From a virus (taxonomy: Duplodnaviria; Heunggongvirae; Uroviricota; Caudoviricetes; Crassvirales), in the IMG/VR virus record IMGVR_UViG_2974729448_000001, positions 3,318 to 67,317 of that record: a stretch of DNA of 64,000 nt; one strand, given 5' to 3'. Shown in pieces: positions 10,625 to 57,187 of this stretch. The notes under the pieces were generated by a model. That model searched no databases and had not been told where the DNA came from. It saw only the letters and a list, made by a program, of their open reading frames with translations. A program made the position numbers and the translations under genes. The first letter of the stretch is position 1. Each line of letters starts with the position of its first letter.

Positions 10625-13048
10625 TTATTTATTAGTAGTACTTGGTTTTTTCTTTAAAGCCTGTCTTTTAATACTTGCATCAGTTCTTGCCTTTTCTTTA
10701 TCAAGTTCTAATTTTTGCTTATCAAGCTTTAGTTTCTCATCAAATTCTCTTATTTTCTCTTCAAGAGAAGCCTTAGCTTCTTCAGAAAATTCATCTGGGC
10801 TAATACCATCTCCTTCTATGTCATTCTTTGACAGTTGAGCTACAATAATTTTAGTTTGATTATCTCTTATATTAGCCTGCTCTTTTTGTTCTAATTCAGC
10901 CTGTTTCTGTTGCAGTTGAGCTTGAGCTACCTGTTGTTGAGCTTCAAGTTGTTGCTGTTGTTGCTGAGACTGTCTTTCTCTAATATCTCTCTCATCTTTT
11001 TCAATAAGTCTCTGTTTTTCTGCAAGAGATGAAGAGGTATAAAGCTTAGTAATAGTAGAGAAGGATAATGTCTGAGTTTGAAGAGCTGCTTGAGCTAATG
11101 TATCAAGCTTAGCTTGAAGTTCCTGTGTTCCATTACTATTATCCACAACCAAACCATAATCTGCTTCAGAGAATTCATCACCATCAATCTCCATTATTCT
11201 GGTTGATGTATCAGATAATATATACTGAAACTTCTTACTTCTTCCTTTCATTGCTACTTTAGCTGTTTCAAGAAATGCTTCAAGTACTCTCTTTTTAACA
11301 TCATCATGAATTACAAATAACCATTCAGTAATATGACTTGATTGCAAAGTAGCTCTTTCTACTCCTCCAACAGTTTCTCTATTAGATATCTGACCCTCTC
11401 TTTGCTTTGTAATACCTACAACTTCAGACATTTCCATCTTAATAAATTCAAGCAGATTTATCTGTTGCTGTATATAGTTTCCTATGTTAGTTTCTAACAT
11501 ACCTCTACTTGCATTATTAAGACCTCCTGCAAGTTTTCCAGTGGCAGCACCTATATTACCTTCCTTGAAACTATCAACTACTGCAATATGATTGGTTCTT
11601 GCAAAATATATCCATTTCTCAACTTCCCAACCTCTTGGAATCTTAGCTAAATCAAGTTCAAGAATTGAACCCCAATTTGAAGCAATAGCCTTATTTAATC
11701 TATCATGAATTGCATCATATAAATAGTTATAAGGTTTCATCATATCTACAAGAGAGAAAGGTTTAGTATCATTTAGATTATATACTGAACCAATAATACC
11801 AAAGTGGCATCTTGATGGGTTACTTAGCCTATTATATTGAATAACTCTTGGACCCATATCAATAAATATACCATCCTTTGCATCTCCAATTAGTGTACCT
11901 TGCCAAGCTTCATTTATCCAGAATGATTGTGACTCCTCTCCTTTATCCTTATCTATAACATAATTTTCAGGATAGAAATCATAAGTTTCTTCTCCTGTTT
12001 GAGGGTCATAAGACTTAACCTTTAATATTTTCTTTTTAGATTTCCAGTATAACCTAAGTACTCTCAAGTTTCCTGCAAGGTCATAAGGGAGCAAAGAGCC
12101 AGCTATTCCCTCAGAGAATAATCCAGCAGGGTCAAAAAAGTAAGAACCCCCAGATACAGTTACTTCATCTCCCATCATACTTGGATTAACAAACTCAAAT
12201 CTTTCATCCATATTATCCATGCTATCAGCAGCAGCTTGACCTACATGGTCTGGAAGATTCTCTATATACTCTATATCCTTTTTAGTAAGAGAATCATAAT
12301 ATGTATCAATTACCCTTCCTGGACTCCAGTAATCTTCAAGTATAATAATATCTGCATCCTCAATCTTGTTACTGTATCCACTCTTGAATACTCTAATCTT
12401 TAGAGGATTAATTCTTTCAATGGTAGGCTCACCTCCTACAATATCACATTGATAAATCTCTTCACCAACTGTCATTGCATCCATAAAGCCTTGATTGAAT
12501 ATTAATGGAATATTATATTCCTTAATATAGTGATTAAGTAGGGCATTAGCTCTTATTTCCCTTAAATCCTGCCATTCATAGGTATAATAATCATTAAGCT
12601 TTTCAAGCTTATTGTTAAAGTCATCCTCTGAAATAGAGTCATCTCTCATAAGCTCCTGAAGGTCCTGTAATAGAGCATTCTTCTTGTTAGTCTCTATCTC
12701 AGATATTGCAGTTGGGTTTGTAACTACTACTCTAAAATCAAAAACTCTTTTTGATTCTTCACCCTTAAGCACATTAAGCTTACTATTAATTATAGGATAA
12801 TGTTGTAGTCTCTCAGGTATATAACCTGCCTTAATATCATCAGGATTAATGATAATCTCAAGGTCTTGCATATGCAATTTTCCATTCAATAAATCATAGT
12901 TTATTTTCTTATGAATTACTGACTTTCTTACCAGATTATAATTAAAGAATGTCTTTTGGTTTGCCCATAACAGACAGTCCTTTCTCCATTGCTTAGTTTT
13001 CTTAGAGAAAGGAAGCATCTGTCTGGGAAAGTTTATATTATCTGCCAT
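10625..13048 (-). CDS. portal protein (candidate)
   Basis: 807-aa ORF immediately downstream of terminase large subunit. Size typical of portals of large podo/crAss-like phages. Q-rich C-terminal coiled coil. Assignment mainly positional. Confidence 0.5.
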   Translation of the reverse strand: MADNINFPRQMLPFSKKTKQWRKDCLLWANQKTFFNYNLVRKSVIHKKINYDLLNGKLHMQDLEIIINPDDIKAGYIPERLQHYPIINSKLNVLKGEESKRVFDFRVVVTNPTAISEIETNKKNALLQDLQELMRDDSISEDDFNNKLEKLNDYYTYEWQDLREIRANALLNHYIKEYNIPLIFNQGFMDAMTVGEEIYQCDIVGGEPTIERINPLKIRVFKSGYSNKIEDADIIILEDYWSPGRVIDTYYDSLTKKDIEYIENLPDHVGQAAADSMDNMDERFEFVNPSMMGDEVTVSGGSYFFDPAGLFSEGIAGSLLPYDLAGNLRVLRLYWKSKKKILKVKSYDPQTGEETYDFYPENYVIDKDKGEESQSFWINEAWQGTLIGDAKDGIFIDMGPRVIQYNRLSNPSRCHFGIIGSVYNLNDTKPFSLVDMMKPYNYLYDAIHDRLNKAIASNWGSILELDLAKIPRGWEVEKWIYFARTNHIAVVDSFKEGNIGAATGKLAGGLNNASRGMLETNIGNYIQQQINLLEFIKMEMSEVVGITKQREGQISNRETVGGVERATLQSSHITEWLFVIHDDVKKRVLEAFLETAKVAMKGRSKKFQYILSDTSTRIMEIDGDEFSEADYGLVVDNSNGTQELQAKLDTLAQAALQTQTLSFSTITKLYTSSSLAEKQRLIEKDERDIRERQSQQQQQQLEAQQQVAQAQLQQKQAELEQKEQANIRDNQTKIIVAQLSKNDIEGDGISPDEFSEEAKASLEEKIREFDEKLKLDKQKLELDKEKARTDASIKRQALKKKPSTTNK

Positions 13049-18382: not shown

Positions 18383-18826
18383 TCATCCTTTACATAGTCT
18401 AAATAAGTACTTATACTTATTAATATTATGAATAAAGGTCTCAGTCTCACTTCTTAATCCAGCATTTACCTTATCAGAGGGTAAACTTTCATAAAAGTCT
18501 TCTACTTTAGGTAGCAATGAATGCAACATCATTGAACCATCTGTATCTTCAATAGCTATACCTTTTATATCATTTGGACCAAACTGACCATATATTCCTT
18601 GGCATTCCTCAGCTATGCTATCTTGATAATCACTTAATATCTCAAGAAATTCATCAAGTCTTTCATGTATATTCATTGCTGGGGCAGCCCAATGTAGATT
18701 CTTTGCTTTAGTTTTATAACCTTCAAGTATAGAAATATACTGTGTAAACTTCTTTAGTTTTGAAGTCTCTTCAATATGTTCTTCTTTAGAAATTAAAGGA
18801 GTATAATCTCCAAATATATTATCCAT
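18383..18826 (-). CDS. hypothetical protein
   Basis: 147-aa ORF lying inside the tRNA array. Confidence 0.4.
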   Translation of the reverse strand: MDNIFGDYTPLISKEEHIEETSKLKKFTQYISILEGYKTKAKNLHWAAPAMNIHERLDEFLEILSDYQDSIAEECQGIYGQFGPNDIKGIAIEDTDGSMMLHSLLPKVEDFYESLPSDKVNAGLRSETETFIHNINKYKYLFRLCKG

Positions 18827-19537: not shown

Positions 19538-19612
19538 CTGGGATGATAGGACTTGAACCTACTATCACCTGATTAACAGTCAGGGGCTGTATACCACTTA
19601 AGCTTCATCCCA
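19538..19612 (-). tRNA. tRNA-Asn (anticodon GUU)
   Basis: Acceptor TGGGATG/CATCCCA, anticodon stem CCTGA/TCAGG with loop CTGTTAA, T-arm GTAGG-TTCAAGT-CCTAT. Confidence 0.6.
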
Positions 19613-19930: not shown

Positions 19931-19936
19931 ATGTTG

Positions 19937-20023
19937 CGGAGAATACAGGACTTGAACCTGTACATCCTTTAAGACTACTGACAGTTTAGCAAACTGCTCC
20001 CTTACCATTAGGGTTAATTCTCC
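19937..20023 (-). tRNA. tRNA-Ser (anticodon GCU), type II with long variable arm
   Basis: Acceptor GGAGAAT/ATTCTCC, anticodon stem GCAGT/ACTGT with loop TTGCTAA, ~19-nt variable region, T-arm ACAGG-TTCAAGT-CCTGT. 87 nt. Confidence 0.55.
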
Positions 20024-20211
20024 ATTTTTAGATATAATCCACAGTGACATTTATCATTTTCTCTGTAATCACTACATGGACATTTCTTATCTTCTCCTGT
20101 ATTATGACAGGGGCATTCCCCATCATTTATCTCACATCTCTTCAGGATAGAGTTTACTACTTTATCATTAGGGTTTAAAACCCAACCTTCCTTTCTTAGT
20201 ATGTTTACCAT
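20014..20211 (-). CDS. ferredoxin-thioredoxin-reductase catalytic-subunit-like (FtrC-like) CPC/CPC/CHC protein
   Basis: 65 aa from internal Met (MVNILRKEGWVLNPND...ECPCHNTGEDKKCPCSDYRENDKCHCGLYL). The GW(V/Y)LNPD...CPC(H/R)...CPC...(K/E)CHC(G/M)L(Y/F)L pattern matches plant/cyanobacterial FtrC. The track start at 20280 would overlap tRNA-Asp, so the internal start is preferred. Last 3 codons overlap the 5' end of tRNA-Ser. Confidence 0.5.
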   Translation of the reverse strand: MVNILRKEGWVLNPNDKVVNSILKRCEINDGECPCHNTGEDKKCPCSDYRENDKCHCGLYLKMEN

Positions 20212-20230
20212 AATTATTATCTTAAATTTG

Positions 20231-20304
20231 CAGTCTATGAGGGAATTGAACCCTCCATCTCCACATTGACAGTGTGGCATGTTAAACCTCTACACCAATA
20301 GACT
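20231..20304 (-). tRNA. tRNA-Asp (anticodon GUC)
   Basis: Acceptor AGTCTAT/ATAGACT, D-stem GTGT/ACAT, anticodon stem CCACA/TGTGG with loop CTGTCAA, T-arm GAGGG-TTCAATT-CCCTC. Confidence 0.65.
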
Positions 20305-20309
20305 ATAAG

Positions 20310-20383
20310 TTGCAGGGAGTGGATTTGAACCACTGTTCTCCTGTGAATGTGCACAGGTGAGATAACCACTTCTCCACCCTACG
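20310..20383 (-). tRNA. unusual tRNA with CAU-containing non-canonical anticodon loop (initiator-like features; possible pseudogene)
   Basis: Acceptor CGTAGGG/CCCTGCA with a C1.A72 mismatch. D-stem GAGA/TCTC (A11:U24). Anticodon region CCTGTG-CACATT-CACAGG folds as a 6-bp stem with 6-nt loop, or a 5-bp stem with 8-nt loop GCACATTC, never 5+7. T-arm AGTGG-TTCAAAT-CCACT. Confidence 0.45.
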
Positions 20384-26163: not shown

Positions 26164-26235
26164 GCCCTCATAGTTCAGTGGATAGAACAAGAGTTTCCTA
26201 AACTTTAGACAGAGGTTCGAGTCCTCTTGGGGGTA
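26164..26235 (+). tRNA. tRNA-Arg (anticodon CCU)
   Basis: Acceptor GCCCTCA/TGGGGGT (two G.U pairs), D-stem GTTC/GAAC, anticodon stem AGAGT/ACTTT with loop TTCCTAA, T-arm AGAGG-TTCGAGT-CCTCT. Confidence 0.6.
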
Positions 26236-26243
26236 CTAAATAA

Positions 26244-26330
26244 GAATACATAGCTTAATGGTAAAGCTTGGTGTGATAAACTGTAACTCATGTCTAACAG
26301 TGATATAGGTTCAAATCCTGTTGTATTCTT
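26244..26330 (+). ncRNA. tRNA-like element without a canonical anticodon arm
   Basis: Perfect acceptor GAATACA/TGTATTC, D-arm GCTT-AATGGTA-AAGC, T-arm ATAGG-TTCAAAT-CCTGT. The 36 nt between D- and T-arms contain no 5-bp stem + 7-nt loop; an exhaustive hand search was done. The only helix is ACTGT-(12 nt)-ACAGT. Confidence 0.4.
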
Positions 26331-26339
26331 ATTTATTTT

Positions 26340-26643
26340 GGGGCATGATTTGGTTTTGATTGCTGATTATTTGGTAAGAGAACATGCAGAGACTGATGGA
26401 GAGACATCAAAACAATAACTGACAACACTTATAGAGTTGCTGCCTAAATTAGGCTAAGCAGCACTTGCTTTGAAACAGAAAGGTGCAAACAAAGGATTTC
26501 TTGCATAGATTAATGCAAGTGGTGGATTGTGTTGATTTCTGGTCAACCCCAGTGGATAACTAACCACATCAAAAATAGTAAGCATGTGTAATTCTTTTAT
26601 TAAAGATTGGTAAGACAAGGGTTCGAGTCCCTTATGCTCCACC
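26340..26643 (+). ncRNA. ssrA: tmRNA (SsrA)
   Basis: 5' end GGGGCATGATTTGG resembles E. coli GGGGCUGAUUCUGG. 3' end GGTTCGAGTCCCTTATGCTCCACC has a T-arm plus acceptor pairing with the 5' end, including the G3.U70 wobble. Internal tag-like frame ...D-N-T-Y-R-V-A-A-TAA (26421..26447). The 64-aa minus-strand ORF 26454..26648 overlaps and is discounted. Confidence 0.75.
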
Positions 26644-26794
26644 TGCATAGATTTCTTTGTTGAGGGTCTTTAGGATGGGTAAATAATAAGAACCTGAGTG
26701 CTGGTAGGTAAGTTACTTTTCTTGTTTTAGGTTGTACTTTGTTCTTAGTAAAGAATCAAAGCAATTAGAAGATAACTCTTAATAAACATAATAT

Positions 26795-47634: not shown

Positions 47635-48667
47635 TATAAAAGAATTAGCATGGAATGTTACTGAAGAAGAATATAGAGCAGACCCAGCATTAAGTTATTC
47701 TACTTTAAGTAGATTTGAAAGAGAAGGATGGAGAAATCTGTCCTCTCTCTTTGATAAGCAAGATACTCCTGCTTTACTATTTGGAAGTGCAGTGGATTGT
47801 ATGCTTACTGATGGTGAACAGGCTTTCAATGACAGGTTTATTGTCTGTGAGTTTCCTAACTTATCTGATAATCTGATTATTATTACAAGGTCATTGTATT
47901 CTAAGTATGGAGATACTCACAGAAGGGTTGATACTATTGATGATGAGGTGATTAGTGAGATAGCTGTGGCTAATGGTTATTATGCAGGAGCATCCTATAA
48001 AGCTACAAGGATAAAGAAGATAAAAGAAAACTGTAATGAGTACTACTCTCTACTTGCATTAGCAGGAAATAAGACTATTATATCGCAGAGTGATTATAAT
48101 GATGTCAGTATATGTGTAGGTGAGTTGGAGACTAATCCAGTGACTAAAGAGTTCTTCTTTATTAATCCTTGGGAACCACATATTGAGAAGCTATTCCAGT
48201 TAAAATTCAAGGCTGAATGGAATGGAATACCTGTCAGATGTATGTTTGATGAGTTGATAGTAGACCATGTGAACAAGGTTATATATCCAATTGACTTAAA
48301 GACTACTGGATATCCTGAGGAGGAATTTCAACATTCATTTATGAAATGGAGGTATGATATCCAAGCCATGCTCTATACATATATCCTTCAGGAGTGTATT
48401 AAAAGAGACCCTTATTTCAGTCAGTTCAAGATTCAGCATTATCAATTTATTGTAATTAACAGAAGAACAGTTGCTCCAATTATATGGAAATTCCATGGTA
48501 ACTTTGGCACAGTAGATTTAAAAGATGAAGAGGGTAATATCTATAGGAATTGGAGGAAGATTCTTACAGACCTAAATTATTACCTTAATAGTTCTAATCT
48601 AAAATATAGTAAGGAAGTGATAGAAAATAATTGTATTATGCAAATAAAAAGTTTAGTACCAGCATGA
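47594..48667 (+). CDS. hypothetical protein, possible YqaJ/lambda-exonuclease-like PD-(D/E)xK exonuclease
   Basis: 357-aa ORF containing IYPIDLKTT (D-x-K) after acidic residues. Weak. Confidence 0.3.
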   Translation: MRVLQLKKIQNMISIKELAWNVTEEEYRADPALSYSTLSRFEREGWRNLSSLFDKQDTPALLFGSAVDCMLTDGEQAFNDRFIVCEFPNLSDNLIIITRSLYSKYGDTHRRVDTIDDEVISEIAVANGYYAGASYKATRIKKIKENCNEYYSLLALAGNKTIISQSDYNDVSICVGELETNPVTKEFFFINPWEPHIEKLFQLKFKAEWNGIPVRCMFDELIVDHVNKVIYPIDLKTTGYPEEEFQHSFMKWRYDIQAMLYTYILQECIKRDPYFSQFKIQHYQFIVINRRTVAPIIWKFHGNFGTVDLKDEEGNIYRNWRKILTDLNYYLNSSNLKYSKEVIENNCIMQIKSLVPA

Positions 48668-51213
48668 CAGAGTTAGAATATTTTAAAGGAGATGAATTGG
48701 CAGCTTCTACTTGGAGAAACAAGTATGCAGCAGAAGGAGAACAAACTCCTGATGATACACATAAAAGGATAGCAAAGGAATTTGCAAGAATAGAAGATAA
48801 TTATAGGTGGGAAGGTAATATAGATAAAGTCTTTAGTAGCTTATCAAATTATGGTTACCAAAGAACACATCTTGATGAAGAAGCTATCTATCAATTATTC
48901 AAAGACTTTAAGTATATTGTACCTGGAGGTTCAGTTATGTCTGGTGCAGGTACAAATCAGTTAGTTTCACTATCTAATTGCTTTGTAATAGATAGTCCAA
49001 AAGACAGTTATGCAGAGATAATGAAGACAAGAAGCCAGCAAGCTCAACTTATGAAGAGGAGAGGTGGAGTAGGATATGACCTATCTGAACTCAGACCAAG
49101 AGGAGCTAAGGTAAATAATGCAGCCAAGTCTTCAACAGGTGCAGCATCTTTCATGGATGTATGTTCTGATATTACTAATGAAGTTGCTCAGAATGGAAGA
49201 AGAGGTGCTCTTATGCTAAGTATGAGTATCAATCATCCTGATATTGAAGAGTTTATTACTAAGAAACAGGACTTAACCAAGGTAACTGGAGCTAATATAT
49301 CAGTTAAAGTTACTGATGAATTCATGCAAGCTGTAATGGAAGATAAGGATTATATCCTTAGATACCCAGTTACTATCTCTAATGAAGATTTATTTGGAAT
49401 GGATTTAATTGTAGAAGAAGTATTAAACTCTTCTAAGTATAATGAATTAGAGAGAGGATTTAGTTGTAATAGTTATTACAAGAAAGTAAGAGCAAGAGAA
49501 TTATGGAATACTCTTATGCACTGTGCTTGGAATACTGCTGAACCGGGGATTATGTTTGAAGGAGCAATGCACAACTATTCTCCTGATGGTGTATATCCTG
49601 ACTTCAAGATGGTGAGTACAAATCCATGCGGAGAGATACCAATGGGTCCATTTGATAGCTGTAGATTGATTCATATTAATCTTAGCAGTTATATCATAGA
49701 CCCATTTACAGATAAGGCTCACATTGATGAAGAACTACTCTATATGCACTCTTATGAAGCTATGAGATTAGCTGATGATTTAGTTGATTTAGAGATTGAA
49801 GCAGTAGACAGGATTATTGAGGCTGTAAAAGATGATACCACTAATACTGAATTAGAGCTATGGGAGAATATTAAGGAGACTACTCAAATGGGTAGAAGAG
49901 CTGGTCTTGGATTCACTGGGCTTGCTGATGCAATAGCTATGTTAGGTTTAAAGTATGACTCTGATGAAGGTATTCAGAAAGTTGAACAACTGATGAAGAT
50001 TATGTTTAAAGGTCAGCTTGATAGTAATATTGATATGGCTGTTGAGAGAGGTAAATTCCCTGTTTGTAATACACCAGTTGAGTTTGAAAATGTAGGATAT
50101 GAGGGAGGTAATCTGTGGTATAAGAAATTAGCTAAGGATTTTCCATCTGAATGCACAAGAATGCTCAAATATGGTAGAAGAAACATTAGTTGGTCAACTG
50201 TAGCTCCTACTGGAACTGTAAGTATTATGGCTGGCACAAGCAGTGGTATTGAGCCTGTATTCATGCCTTTTTATCAAAGAAAGAGGAAATGTATGGATAC
50301 TAAGGATAGAGTGGATTATGTAGATAAGGTAGGTGAGAAATATACCTTGTTTACTGTAGTTCATCCTAACTTGAAGAGATGGGCTGTAACTACCTTGAAT
50401 TACAGTGAAGAGGAAGTCAATGATTGGTCTGTTGGAGTATGGCATGAAGTGTGGAAAGAAAGTCCTTACTATGGTTCTACTGCACCAGAGATTGATTGGA
50501 GACAGAGAGTCAAGCTGCAAGGAGTGGTTCAAAAATATATCACTCACAGTATCAGTAGTACAGTTAATCTGGCTAAGGAAACTACAGAAGAAGAGATTGC
50601 TGACATCTATATTGAATCTTGGAAACAAGGACTGAAAGGCATTACTATTTACAGGGATGGTTGTAGGGAAGGTGTATTAACTAAGGTTGATAAGCCTAAG
50701 ACTATTGAAGGAAGACAAGCTCCTAAGAGACCAAAAGAGTTGGAAGCTGATTATTATCAGGTTAAATCTAAAGGTGAACAGTTTATAGTTCTTGTAGGTC
50801 TATTAAATGGAAAACCTTATGAAATATTTGCATTCAGACCTCTTAGTGCTGTTAATGTTCCACAACATAAAGGAGTAATAACTAAGATAGGTAAGATGCA
50901 CTATAGTTTCACCTCTGAGTATATGCAATTATCAAACTTGCAGGAGGCTAATATTAACATTGAAGAACAAGCAGCTACTCTATATTCATCTATGTTATTA
51001 AGGCATGGTGTGGATATTAAGTATATTATCAAGACTGCAAAGAAGGTAAATAGTAATATTACTTCATTTAGTTCAGCAATGTGCAGAGTTCTATCAAAGT
51101 ATGTTTCAAAAGAGGAGATAAAAGGTGAAGTGTGCCCTGATTGTGGCTCAGTTTTAATCAGAGAAAATGGTTGTGTACATTGCAGTTCCTGCGGGTGGAG
51201 CAGATGCAGTTAG
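48631..51213 (+). CDS. nrdJ: ribonucleotide reductase, class II (adenosylcobalamin-type, NrdJ-like) with C-terminal zinc ribbon
   Basis: 860-aa ORF. Active-site NPCGEIPMGPFDSCRLIHINL (NPCGE is class II-type; class I has NxCxE). C-terminus CPDCGSVLIRENGCVHCSSCGW zinc ribbon. No ATP cone. No NrdB/NrdG partner in window. Confidence 0.7.
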   Translation: MYYANKKFSTSMTELEYFKGDELAASTWRNKYAAEGEQTPDDTHKRIAKEFARIEDNYRWEGNIDKVFSSLSNYGYQRTHLDEEAIYQLFKDFKYIVPGGSVMSGAGTNQLVSLSNCFVIDSPKDSYAEIMKTRSQQAQLMKRRGGVGYDLSELRPRGAKVNNAAKSSTGAASFMDVCSDITNEVAQNGRRGALMLSMSINHPDIEEFITKKQDLTKVTGANISVKVTDEFMQAVMEDKDYILRYPVTISNEDLFGMDLIVEEVLNSSKYNELERGFSCNSYYKKVRARELWNTLMHCAWNTAEPGIMFEGAMHNYSPDGVYPDFKMVSTNPCGEIPMGPFDSCRLIHINLSSYIIDPFTDKAHIDEELLYMHSYEAMRLADDLVDLEIEAVDRIIEAVKDDTTNTELELWENIKETTQMGRRAGLGFTGLADAIAMLGLKYDSDEGIQKVEQLMKIMFKGQLDSNIDMAVERGKFPVCNTPVEFENVGYEGGNLWYKKLAKDFPSECTRMLKYGRRNISWSTVAPTGTVSIMAGTSSGIEPVFMPFYQRKRKCMDTKDRVDYVDKVGEKYTLFTVVHPNLKRWAVTTLNYSEEEVNDWSVGVWHEVWKESPYYGSTAPEIDWRQRVKLQGVVQKYITHSISSTVNLAKETTEEEIADIYIESWKQGLKGITIYRDGCREGVLTKVDKPKTIEGRQAPKRPKELEADYYQVKSKGEQFIVLVGLLNGKPYEIFAFRPLSAVNVPQHKGVITKIGKMHYSFTSEYMQLSNLQEANINIEEQAATLYSSMLLRHGVDIKYIIKTAKKVNSNITSFSSAMCRVLSKYVSKEEIKGEVCPDCGSVLIRENGCVHCSSCGWSRCS

Positions 51214-56643: not shown

Positions 56644-57187
56644 AATGAATAAGAAACTTAGGTTATTAGTAACAACTAAATGTCCTAATAAATGTCCCAT
56701 GTGTTGCAATAACTCATGGGATTTTTCATCTTTACCAGTAGTGGATAGATGGGACTATGAAGAGATAATGATAACTGGAGGAGAGCCTTTAATTCATACT
56801 AATAAAGTAACTGAATTAATAAGGTCTATTCGAGTTATCAGTGAAGTTTATACAGATATTCCAAAGGTATATGTGTACACTTCAATAGCTGCTTGGGATA
56901 GAGTAAGAACTATATTAGCTTATGCAGATGGTATAGTTTTGACTCCACATAGTCAGAATGATATTGATAGGTTTGTGGAACTGAACAATATGATGCAAGA
57001 GCTTAAAGGAACTAAACTTGATTTTGCTAAAGGTAAATCACTTAGACTTAATCTCTTTGCTGATATGAAACTTCTCCTTCCTGAGCACATTGATTTGTCA
57101 CTATGGAATATCAAAGAAATGGAGTGGGTAAAAGATTGTCCAGTACCACAGGGTGAAGATTTCAGAAGGATTAAGGAACTTTGGTAA
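56621..57187 (+). CDS. radical SAM protein (small, QueE/NrdG-like size)
   Basis: 188-aa ORF. LLVTTKCPNKCPMCCNN = CxxxCxxC cluster motif. IMITGGEPL glycine-rich SAM motif. Confidence 0.55.
   Translation: MYHLMKSKMNKKLRLLVTTKCPNKCPMCCNNSWDFSSLPVVDRWDYEEIMITGGEPLIHTNKVTELIRSIRVISEVYTDIPKVYVYTSIAAWDRVRTILAYADGIVLTPHSQNDIDRFVELNNMMQELKGTKLDFAKGKSLRLNLFADMKLLLPEHIDLSLWNIKEMEWVKDCPVPQGEDFRRIKELW

Follow-up and report, generated by a model that had tools for sequence, protein, structure and literature searches.

Whether a reading frame of 65 codons squeezed between two tRNA genes of a crAss-like phage can encode a redox enzyme, and what such an enzyme would do in the infected cell, is the question raised by positions 20014–20211 (minus strand) of a 64,000-nt stretch of the uncultured phage cr106_1; this stretch is called the window here, and all coordinates are window positions. 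The open reading frame (ORF) runs from 20211 down to 20014, starts with ATG and consists of 65 codons and a TAA stop, which is counted within the coordinates. Its product, MVNILRKEGWVLNPNDKVVNSILKRCEINDGECPCHNTGEDKKCPCSDYRENDKCHCGLYLKMEN, contains the cysteine motifs C33-P-C35, C44-P-C46 and C55-H-C57, that is, CPC-x8-CPC-x8-CHC. The original prediction, made from the DNA alone, had placed an FtrC-like CPC/CPC/CHC protein here, nested between tRNA-Ser and tRNA-Asp, and its coordinates, motif and nesting were all confirmed by the sequence, ARAGORN and Rfam. The gene, hereafter mini-FTR, is an unannotated orthologue of gp5 of phage crAss001, and its product is like the catalytic subunit of ferredoxin-thioredoxin reductase (FTR; catalytic subunit, FTRc) and the ferredoxin-dependent disulfide reductases (FDRs). 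With a probability of roughly 55%, we read it as a ferredoxin-dependent disulfide reductase that acts through thioredoxin, probably for the synthesis of deoxynucleoside triphosphates (dNTPs).

A conserved gene for a minimal FTRc/FDR-family protein

A tblastn search of GenBank phages gave a 100% match to cr106_1 (MT774378.1; Crassvirales, Steigviridae, Mahstovirus faecalis), in whose record only tRNA-Ser is annotated under the match and the mini-FTR ORF is left out. Conservation in related genomes, on which the original prediction had made its identification depend, extends to the crAss001 orthologue and to 332 close homologues, matched at E ≤ 1e-3 in a collection of 5.8 billion proteins. A profile of 71 close homologues retrieved 733 clusters (50% identity) at E ≤ 1e-3 and 136 at E ≤ 1e-10, nearly all with proteins of 55–130 aa. 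Compared with 22 distinct orthologous sequences of 65 codons, the ratio of nonsynonymous to synonymous substitution rates (dN/dS) is 0.05–0.13, at synonymous differences of 0.47–1.0 per site, which is near saturation; the gene is under strong purifying selection.

Transcription data come from the one-step RNA-seq experiment on crAss001 of Shkoporov et al. 2021 (PMC8375218, supplementary sheet Fig. 4b) and concern the orthologue only. The log2 change of crAss001_5 was −0.08/+0.17 at 10 min, −7.1/+1.7 at 30 min and +16.4/+9.7 at 60 min (PMC8375218), so the orthologue is transcribed and belongs to the late class. The 65-codon ORF is therefore a genuine gene, and an expressed one as judged by its crAss001 orthologue; a spurious ORF in a tRNA spacer was rejected on the dN/dS values, the hundreds of homologues and the RNA-seq data of the orthologue. 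Also rejected was an 88-aa version proposed by the ORF finder, since its start falls inside tRNA-Asp and the homologues begin at the methionine of the 65-aa version (M-[IV]-x-I-L-R-K). Proteins of this kind are usually left 'hypothetical': PHROG 38239 is listed as of unknown function, and there is no NCBIfam model.

The FtrC-like identity originally proposed holds as profile similarity beyond the spacing of the cysteines. The match to Pfam PF02943 (FeThRed_B) reaches 24.9 bits, above the gathering score of 22 (E = 2.2e-5), with residues 5–64 placed on positions 13–89 of the 106 in the profile, and the profile also matches 60 of 92 diverse clade members (best E 9.3e-11). In a profile search of PDB sequences, C33, C35, C44, C46, C55 and C57, together with H56, align to Cys55, Cys57, Cys74, Cys76, Cys85 and Cys87, and to His86, of 1dj7_A, the catalytic chain of Synechocystis FTR, with a deletion of eight residues in the first (CPC-CPC) loop (x8 vs x16). 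In the FTR structures (Dai et al. 2000, 2007), Cys55, Cys74, Cys76 and Cys85 of FTRc are reported to ligate the [4Fe-4S] cluster and Cys57–Cys87 to be the active-site disulfide; by this alignment, the phage protein retains the full set of ligand and redox cysteines. None of the six varies among the 71 close homologues, at least 90% of which also have H56, while the exact CPC-x8-CPC-x8-CHC pattern is present in 99 of the 120 nearest homologues.

The predicted structure has the FTRc fold. An AlphaFold2 model based on the 71-sequence alignment (mean predicted local distance difference test score, pLDDT, 89.7; predicted template modelling score, pTM, 0.74) was compared with the PDB using Foldseek, and the first 12 matches were all FTR catalytic chains, the M. 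acetivorans FDR (4tpu) or the Desulfotalea fusion of glutaredoxin (Grx) and FDR (7pwe), with probabilities of 0.66–0.99 and query TM-scores of 0.51–0.68. The protein is a single domain, the FTRc core alignment taking in 61 residues and covering the whole 65 aa. In a structural search of BFVD, the best match was a 232-aa phage protein named dihydrofolate reductase, known by its name and structure only, followed by a 69-aa 'ferredoxin thioredoxin reductase' of a siphovirus. Profile, motif, histidine and fold thus identify the 65-aa protein as a minimal single-domain member of the FTRc/FDR family (PF02943). On sequence grounds, it belongs to a large clade of single-domain FTRc-like proteins of about 60–70 aa, among whose members Pfam recognised only fusions to HNH/NUMOD homing endonuclease, DUF3310 and coiled-coil extensions. 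Across the 145 most similar representatives at 50% identity, on which variation in the clade was assessed, the first cysteine spacer has 6–16 residues and the second has 8, except for two proteins with 7.

Candidate electron route and clients

By homology, C33, C44, C46 and C55 would hold a [4Fe-4S] cluster, and C35 and C57 would form an adjacent redox-active disulfide, with H56 between the last pair of cysteines. Reduced host ferredoxin would donate two successive electrons through the cluster; the C35–C57 disulfide would be cleaved, and the resulting thiol would reduce the disulfide of a redoxin. Reduced ferredoxin is expected to be plentiful in anaerobic Bacteroides. The acceptor would most likely be host thioredoxin, because the phage appears to have none: tblastn (E. 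coli, T4 and Clostridium queries, and a phage thioredoxin query) and a scan for active-site motifs, both of low sensitivity, found no recognisable thioredoxin, glutaredoxin, NrdH, ferredoxin or flavodoxin in the cr106_1 genome. The ferredoxin or thioredoxin genes for which the original prediction had proposed a search elsewhere in the phage genome were thus not recognised, and both electron partners would be host proteins. Such an enzyme would most likely serve to sustain thioredoxin-dependent reactions during infection without relying on NADPH, and the best candidate client would be deoxynucleotide synthesis by the phage ribonucleotide reductase (RNR).

A strict anaerobe could plausibly do with the bare catalytic core, given that ferredoxin and thioredoxin contact only the catalytic subunit of FTR and that the variable subunit, present only in oxygenic phototrophs, is thought to shield the cluster from oxygen (PMC9025218). 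Among Fe-S disulfide reductases, FDRs are an established type in archaea and bacteria (PMC6262447), and one of them supplies the class III RNR of M. barkeri, according to Wei et al. 2015 as cited in PMC5704485 and PMC9176816.

Gene neighbourhoods were compared in 83 phage contexts (80 IMG/VR loci and three others). NrdD/NrdG is encoded within 8 kb of mini-FTR in 16 of the 83 (L006, L084–L089 and L091–L099; several on contigs of 147–204 kb with a GC content of about 0.30). The order in these loci is nrdD-nrdG, mini-FTR, then dUTPase and ligases, and in 6 of the 16 nrdG overlaps the start of mini-FTR by 16 nt. The NrdDs match TIGR02827 (788 bits vs 568), and their activases are of the nrdG3 type. 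They align to T. maritima NrdD (4coi) with an E value of 1e-68, but to Prevotella copri NrdD (8p23) with only 4e-6, and they keep the PYC cysteine, a double-Cys finger loop (S-S-C-C-R-L) without Met, and a Glu aligned to Glu495 of the T. maritima enzyme. The published marks of a thioredoxin-type NrdD are a third Cys and a Glu, the Glu without a finger-loop Met (PMC4493059; PMC9669993; PMC9176816), and the linked NrdDs are therefore of the thioredoxin-using rather than the formate type. Four of the nrdD-linked loci encode a small thioredoxin (WCLPC) beside ThyX in the same module. NrdD of L084–L099 contains up to 9 in-frame TGA codons (4–9 in most full-length matches; e.g. L086 5352–7490) and the L085 thioredoxin (11753–12004) has TGA at the expected active-site Trp position of WC..C, which together indicate TGA-to-Trp recoding; L091 has in-frame TAG instead of TGA.

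A second group of phage loci (L065–L075, L080 and L081) carries mini-FTR in a replication module with a PIF1-like helicase, DnaB and primase. DnaE (Pol III alpha) is split in this group (e.g. L065 6289–11708) into a PHP/NTPase half and a finger/HhH half, and mini-FTR and the PIF1-like helicase are inserted between the two halves. Six distant representatives were also sampled: one lies between deoxynucleoside monophosphate kinase and ThyX, one before dUTPase/dCTP deaminase and one near SbcC and primase, and three were uninformative.

The family is not confined to phages, and a phage-only distribution was rejected: copies occur on chromosomes of rumen Prevotellaceae/Bacteroidales, on contigs of up to 222 kb in metagenome-assembled genomes. 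Scanning prokaryotes at one genome per species yielded 19 loci, of which two are phage-like with low GC. Another 14 are on high-GC (0.47–0.58) contigs from these rumen bacteria, with the GC of the gene adapted to that of the contig, and fall into three conserved syntenies. One of the syntenies, with proteins 63–73% identical to the phage protein, consists of leucyl-tRNA synthetase, MutS, the gene itself, an S41 peptidase, a CoaD-like protein and GyrB/ParE (Pfam-confirmed), an order that marks these copies as chromosomal genes. An exact-sequence look-up placed chromosomal copies on up to 316 contigs, where NCBI names them 'hypothetical protein' but JGI 'ferredoxin-thioredoxin reductase catalytic subunit'. 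In three loci (two Paludibacteraceae and one Ca. Scybalocola; 51% identity), the gene is immediately upstream of, and on the same strand as, cysD-cysN-cysH-sulfite reductase, the last being NIR_SIR+TusA by Pfam. The CysH of this operon matches TIGR02055, 'adenylylsulfate reductase, thioredoxin dependent' (269.5 vs a cutoff of 235.3). Where the context is informative, the neighbours of the gene thus belong to nucleotide metabolism and replication or are thioredoxin-dependent reductases.

In the window itself, the candidate downstream client would be NrdJ, a class II (B12-dependent) RNR encoded at 48664–51213 (plus strand; TIGR02504 NrdJ_Z, 495 bits vs a cutoff of 400). Its C-terminus (51130–51213, plus strand) has six cysteines, CPDC...CVHCSSC...C, and reads ...CPDCGSVLIRENGCVHCSSCGWSRCS up to the stop. 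An NrdJ with a cysteine-rich zinc-finger domain was described by Loderer et al. 2017; neither thioredoxins nor glutaredoxin gave activity with it, and its native reductant is not known (PMC5704485). The six-Cys tail encoded in the window fits that cysteine-rich domain. With no known donor for this type of NrdJ, a direct route from an FDR to NrdJ is worth testing. Mini-FTR would then reduce the RNR without a thioredoxin intermediate, either at the six-Cys C-terminal domain of NrdJ or at the active-site or C-terminal cysteines of the thioredoxin-type NrdD, and the searches that found no thioredoxin in cr106_1 and the nrdG/mini-FTR overlap in several phages also speak for it. We nevertheless consider this direct route unlikely, since the characterised FTR and FDR enzymes all reduce proteins of the redoxin fold (PMC6262447; PMC9176816), some nrdD-linked phage modules include a thioredoxin of their own, mini-FTR and nrdJ are 28 kb apart and belong to different temporal classes, and some NrdJ-bearing relatives are not among the 50 phage records with the gene. 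It is about equally doubtful that phage RNRs have, in the short FTRc-like proteins of gut and rumen phages, dedicated electron donors driven by ferredoxin, which would include reduction of the six-Cys domain of NrdJ directly or through thioredoxin. In that case, crAss-like phages would make dNTP synthesis draw on the low-potential ferredoxin pool of the host instead of NADPH.

Several observations weigh against a disulfide reductase that supplies RNR through thioredoxin. Members of the short clade are known from sequence and predicted structure, not from biochemistry. About 45 residues of canonical FTRc are missing, comprising both termini and eight residues of the CPC-CPC loop, and the protein has no annotated variable subunit and no rubredoxin or glutaredoxin partner domain, so that docking of donor and acceptor is only putative. 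Across the 145 representatives, the residue between the last two cysteines varies (H and C are commonest, with T, E, V, I, K, R, Y, F and A also present), and hence the catalytic His of FTRc is not required clade-wide. Some ten of them (P0154, P0157, P0165, P0166, P0190, P0193, P0212, P0222, P0230 and P0239) have S, T or N for the equivalent of C35, most with CYC as the third motif; in this sub-clade, a canonical redox disulfide would be impossible and the function may be different. Most bacterial chromosomal contexts (mutS, cell-wall genes) are uninformative. Timing differs: crAss001 gp5 is late, coming on at 30–60 min with tRNAs and structural genes, while NrdJ (gp69), ThyX and dUTPase of crAss001 are middle genes that come on at 10–30 min and are roughly stable afterwards. 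The relatives cr128_1, DAC20 and cr108_1, with related NrdJs (69.5%, 58% and 52%, respectively), gave no match for the gene and are absent from the 50 phage records with it, and strict co-occurrence with NrdJ was accordingly rejected. Late expression and these relatives weaken the RNR link in cr106_1. The original suggestion of a role in host thioredoxin state or RNR reductant supply has gained comparative support from the nrdD/nrdG and adenylylsulfate (APS) reductase links.

The severe truncation relative to FTRc, the variable equivalent of His86 and the C35 equivalent missing in some clade members could also be explained if the protein were not a disulfide reductase at all, but a small metal or Fe-S electron carrier or accessory, for example to reduce the cluster of a radical S-adenosylmethionine (radical-SAM) activase such as NrdG, or a structural or regulatory Cys-rich protein. 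Consistent with this, the gene immediately follows and overlaps nrdG in several phages, and cr106_1 encodes a radical-SAM-like protein of 180 aa (Fer4_12, 21.5 bits). However, the two cysteines of the putative redox pair do not vary among close homologues and are kept by about 80% of distant representatives, and the operon link to thioredoxin-dependent APS reductase involves no radical-SAM enzyme. From FTR spectroscopy, moreover, the FTR-type cluster is not a low-potential 2+/1+ carrier. Taken together, these points make a non-reductase quite improbable. The radical-SAM-like protein (56645–57187, plus strand) is annotated 'HxsC-like radical SAM maturase' and lies in the middle-gene module; its matches are weak (Pfam Fer4_12 with a cutoff of 22 bits; TIGR03977, 27.9 bits vs a cutoff of 268). 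Similarity of this protein to phage NrdG was considered and rejected, as only the CxxxCxxC motif aligns.

The tRNA array and its other genes

Immediately upstream of mini-FTR is tRNA-Asp(GTC), at 20230–20304 (minus strand; ARAGORN; Rfam tRNA, 62.2 bits), and immediately downstream is tRNA-Ser(GCT), at 19936–20023 (minus strand; ARAGORN; Rfam tRNA, 53.4 bits at 19937–20023). A gap of 18 nt separates the 3' end of tRNA-Asp from the ATG, and the ORF must therefore be co-transcribed with the tRNA array. A scan of the region for sigma-70 promoters and terminators found sites no commoner than expected by chance; its consensus is unsuited to Bacteroides. The last 10 nt of the ORF (20014–20023), which comprise the last base of codon 63, codons 64–65 and the stop, are the first 10 nt of tRNA-Ser and belong to its acceptor stem. 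The same 10-nt overlap is found in crAss001 and in 21 of the 80 viral loci, all from crAss001-like phages with the gene in a tRNA array; in 12 further crAss001-like loci, a 104-aa variant ends 1 nt ahead of tRNA-Ser, and in three loci of other lineages the gene overlaps tRNA-Pro by 7 or 18 nt.

From the sequence, an RNase P cut at the 5' end of tRNA-Ser is predicted to fall within codon 63, which would leave an mRNA without a stop. The phage encodes its own transfer-messenger RNA (tmRNA) at 26340–26644 (plus strand; Rfam RF00023, 74.3 bits; tag peptide DNTYRVAA according to ARAGORN), preceded by tRNA-Arg (26164–26236) and then tRNA-Ile (26243–26330). An own tmRNA is intriguing beside a gene whose mRNA may lose its stop codon through tRNA processing. 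Directly upstream of tRNA-Asp, at 20309–20383 (minus strand), ARAGORN reported a 'tRNA-???' with a two-base anticodon and a 6-nt loop (or an 8-nt loop with a 5-bp stem); it has no Rfam tRNA match at E ≤ 0.01 and no GenBank annotation, and may be a degenerate or unusual tRNA-like element. At 19538–19612 (minus strand), Rfam gives a good tRNA match (55.8 bits), which neither ARAGORN nor the GenBank record includes; its anticodon loop CTGTTAA, read by eye, gives GTT (Asn).

A function tied to the neighbouring tRNAs, in their modification, repair or expression, would account for the position of the gene between tRNAs in 49 of the 80 viral loci, for its co-induction with the tRNAs in crAss001 and for a stop codon repeatedly found inside the downstream tRNA (Ser −10, Pro −7, Pro −18). 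We regard this as highly improbable. The fold is not that of any known tRNA enzyme, unrelated accessory genes (HNH endonucleases, the Dps-like gene, DUF4157) are also found in the array, and loci of other phage lineages and all 18 bacterial loci have no tRNA within 6–8 kb. A universal tRNA linkage was rejected, with 31 of the 80 viral loci and 18 of the 19 genome loci lacking a tRNA nearby.

The 'DpsA-like' gene, annotated in GenBank at 18383–18826 (minus strand), is part of the same tRNA array. A Dps-like gene follows mini-FTR in the array of nearly all crAss001-like loci, and DpsA-like gp7 of crAss001 rises by +9.9/+9.6 log2 at 60 min alongside gp5, the tRNAs and the tail genes, apart from the nucleotide-metabolism genes, which are a 30-min group. 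Such a neighbour hints at a redox or iron theme and allows the same chemistry to be assigned to another end, namely thiol and oxidative-stress homeostasis late in infection, in which host thioredoxin would be kept reduced for peroxiredoxins and repair, together with the Dps-like gene, rather than for RNR. Host transcription is off from 10–30 min, so that redox maintenance could become limiting. The linkage to Dps is nevertheless limited to one phage lineage, and the neighbours in other lineages are RNR, dUTPase, ThyX and replication genes. The label itself is weakly founded: 'putative DpsA' was carried over from crAss001, the protein reaches only 31.3 bits with Pfam DUF5856 (cutoff 34.6), and it gave no match to a Dps or ferritin family in Pfam at E ≤ 1e-3 and none in NCBIfam. 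A stress-related role is therefore possible but on the unlikely side, and supply of thioredoxin-dependent dNTP synthesis is the reading we prefer.

Significance and comparison with known systems

The human gut harbours few viruses more abundant than crAss-like phages, and a function has been tested for only a few of their accessory genes. If the preferred reading is true, phages of anaerobes tap the ferredoxin pool of their host for thioredoxin-dependent chemistry, most plausibly for deoxynucleotide synthesis. The phage protein would then be the smallest known FTR catalytic core and a convenient minimal model for Fe-S/disulfide chemistry, and it would offer a concrete candidate reductant for class II RNRs with a cysteine-rich domain, a question open since 2017.

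The closest known relative is Gp5 of crAss001 (AXQ62648.1), an orthologue of 65 aa with 84.6% identity, the same order of tRNA-Asp, gene and tRNA-Ser and the same 10-nt overlap; nothing of substance separates the two, except that the gene is labelled in crAss001 and unannotated in cr106_1. The crAss001 paper mentions gp5 in one sentence as a 'putative ferredoxin-thioredoxin reductase' and one of two auxiliary metabolic genes (Shkoporov et al. 2018, PMC6235969), and in the searchable literature no phage-encoded FTR-like gene beyond it was reported. A phage copy, which the original prediction had called unexpected, has thus been on record since 2018, and its description of FtrC as a plant and cyanobacterial subunit is too narrow, as homologues occur in many bacteria and archaea (PMC9025218, PMC6262447). 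The identification is a rediscovery of a published annotation, of which only the label had appeared. New are the short Bacteroidales/phage clade, its occurrence on chromosomes, the links to thioredoxin-type NrdD/NrdG and to APS reductase, and the late timing in crAss001.

Compared with plant-type FTR, whose catalytic chain has about 110–117 aa (about 13 kDa), the phage protein has 65 aa (about 7.4 kDa) and lacks Pfam positions 1–12 and 90–106 as well as the eight loop residues. It comes from a phage of an anaerobic heterotroph, whereas the variable subunit, FTRv, is confined to oxygenic phototrophs (PMC9025218); no FTRv is annotated in cr106_1, for which no PF02941 profile search was made. The Desulfotalea psychrophila Grx-FDR fusion (PDB 7PWE) has its own redoxin domain, while the phage protein is a bare core that would need a separate redoxin. 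The FDR of Methanosarcina (PDB 4TPU) has 169 aa with an added rubredoxin-like domain, and the phage protein has no second domain. The protein is therefore not a heterodimeric plant-type FTR, for which it is too short, nor a rubredoxin-type FDR or a Grx-FDR fusion, whose additional domains it lacks. The Methanosarcina enzyme serves a class III RNR, while the RNR of cr106_1 is of class II and non-adjacent; relatives linked to nrdD/nrdG account for 16 of the 83 phage contexts, and their nrdD-nrdG-mini-FTR arrangement in large gut phages parallels the only characterised FDR–RNR system, that of Methanosarcina.

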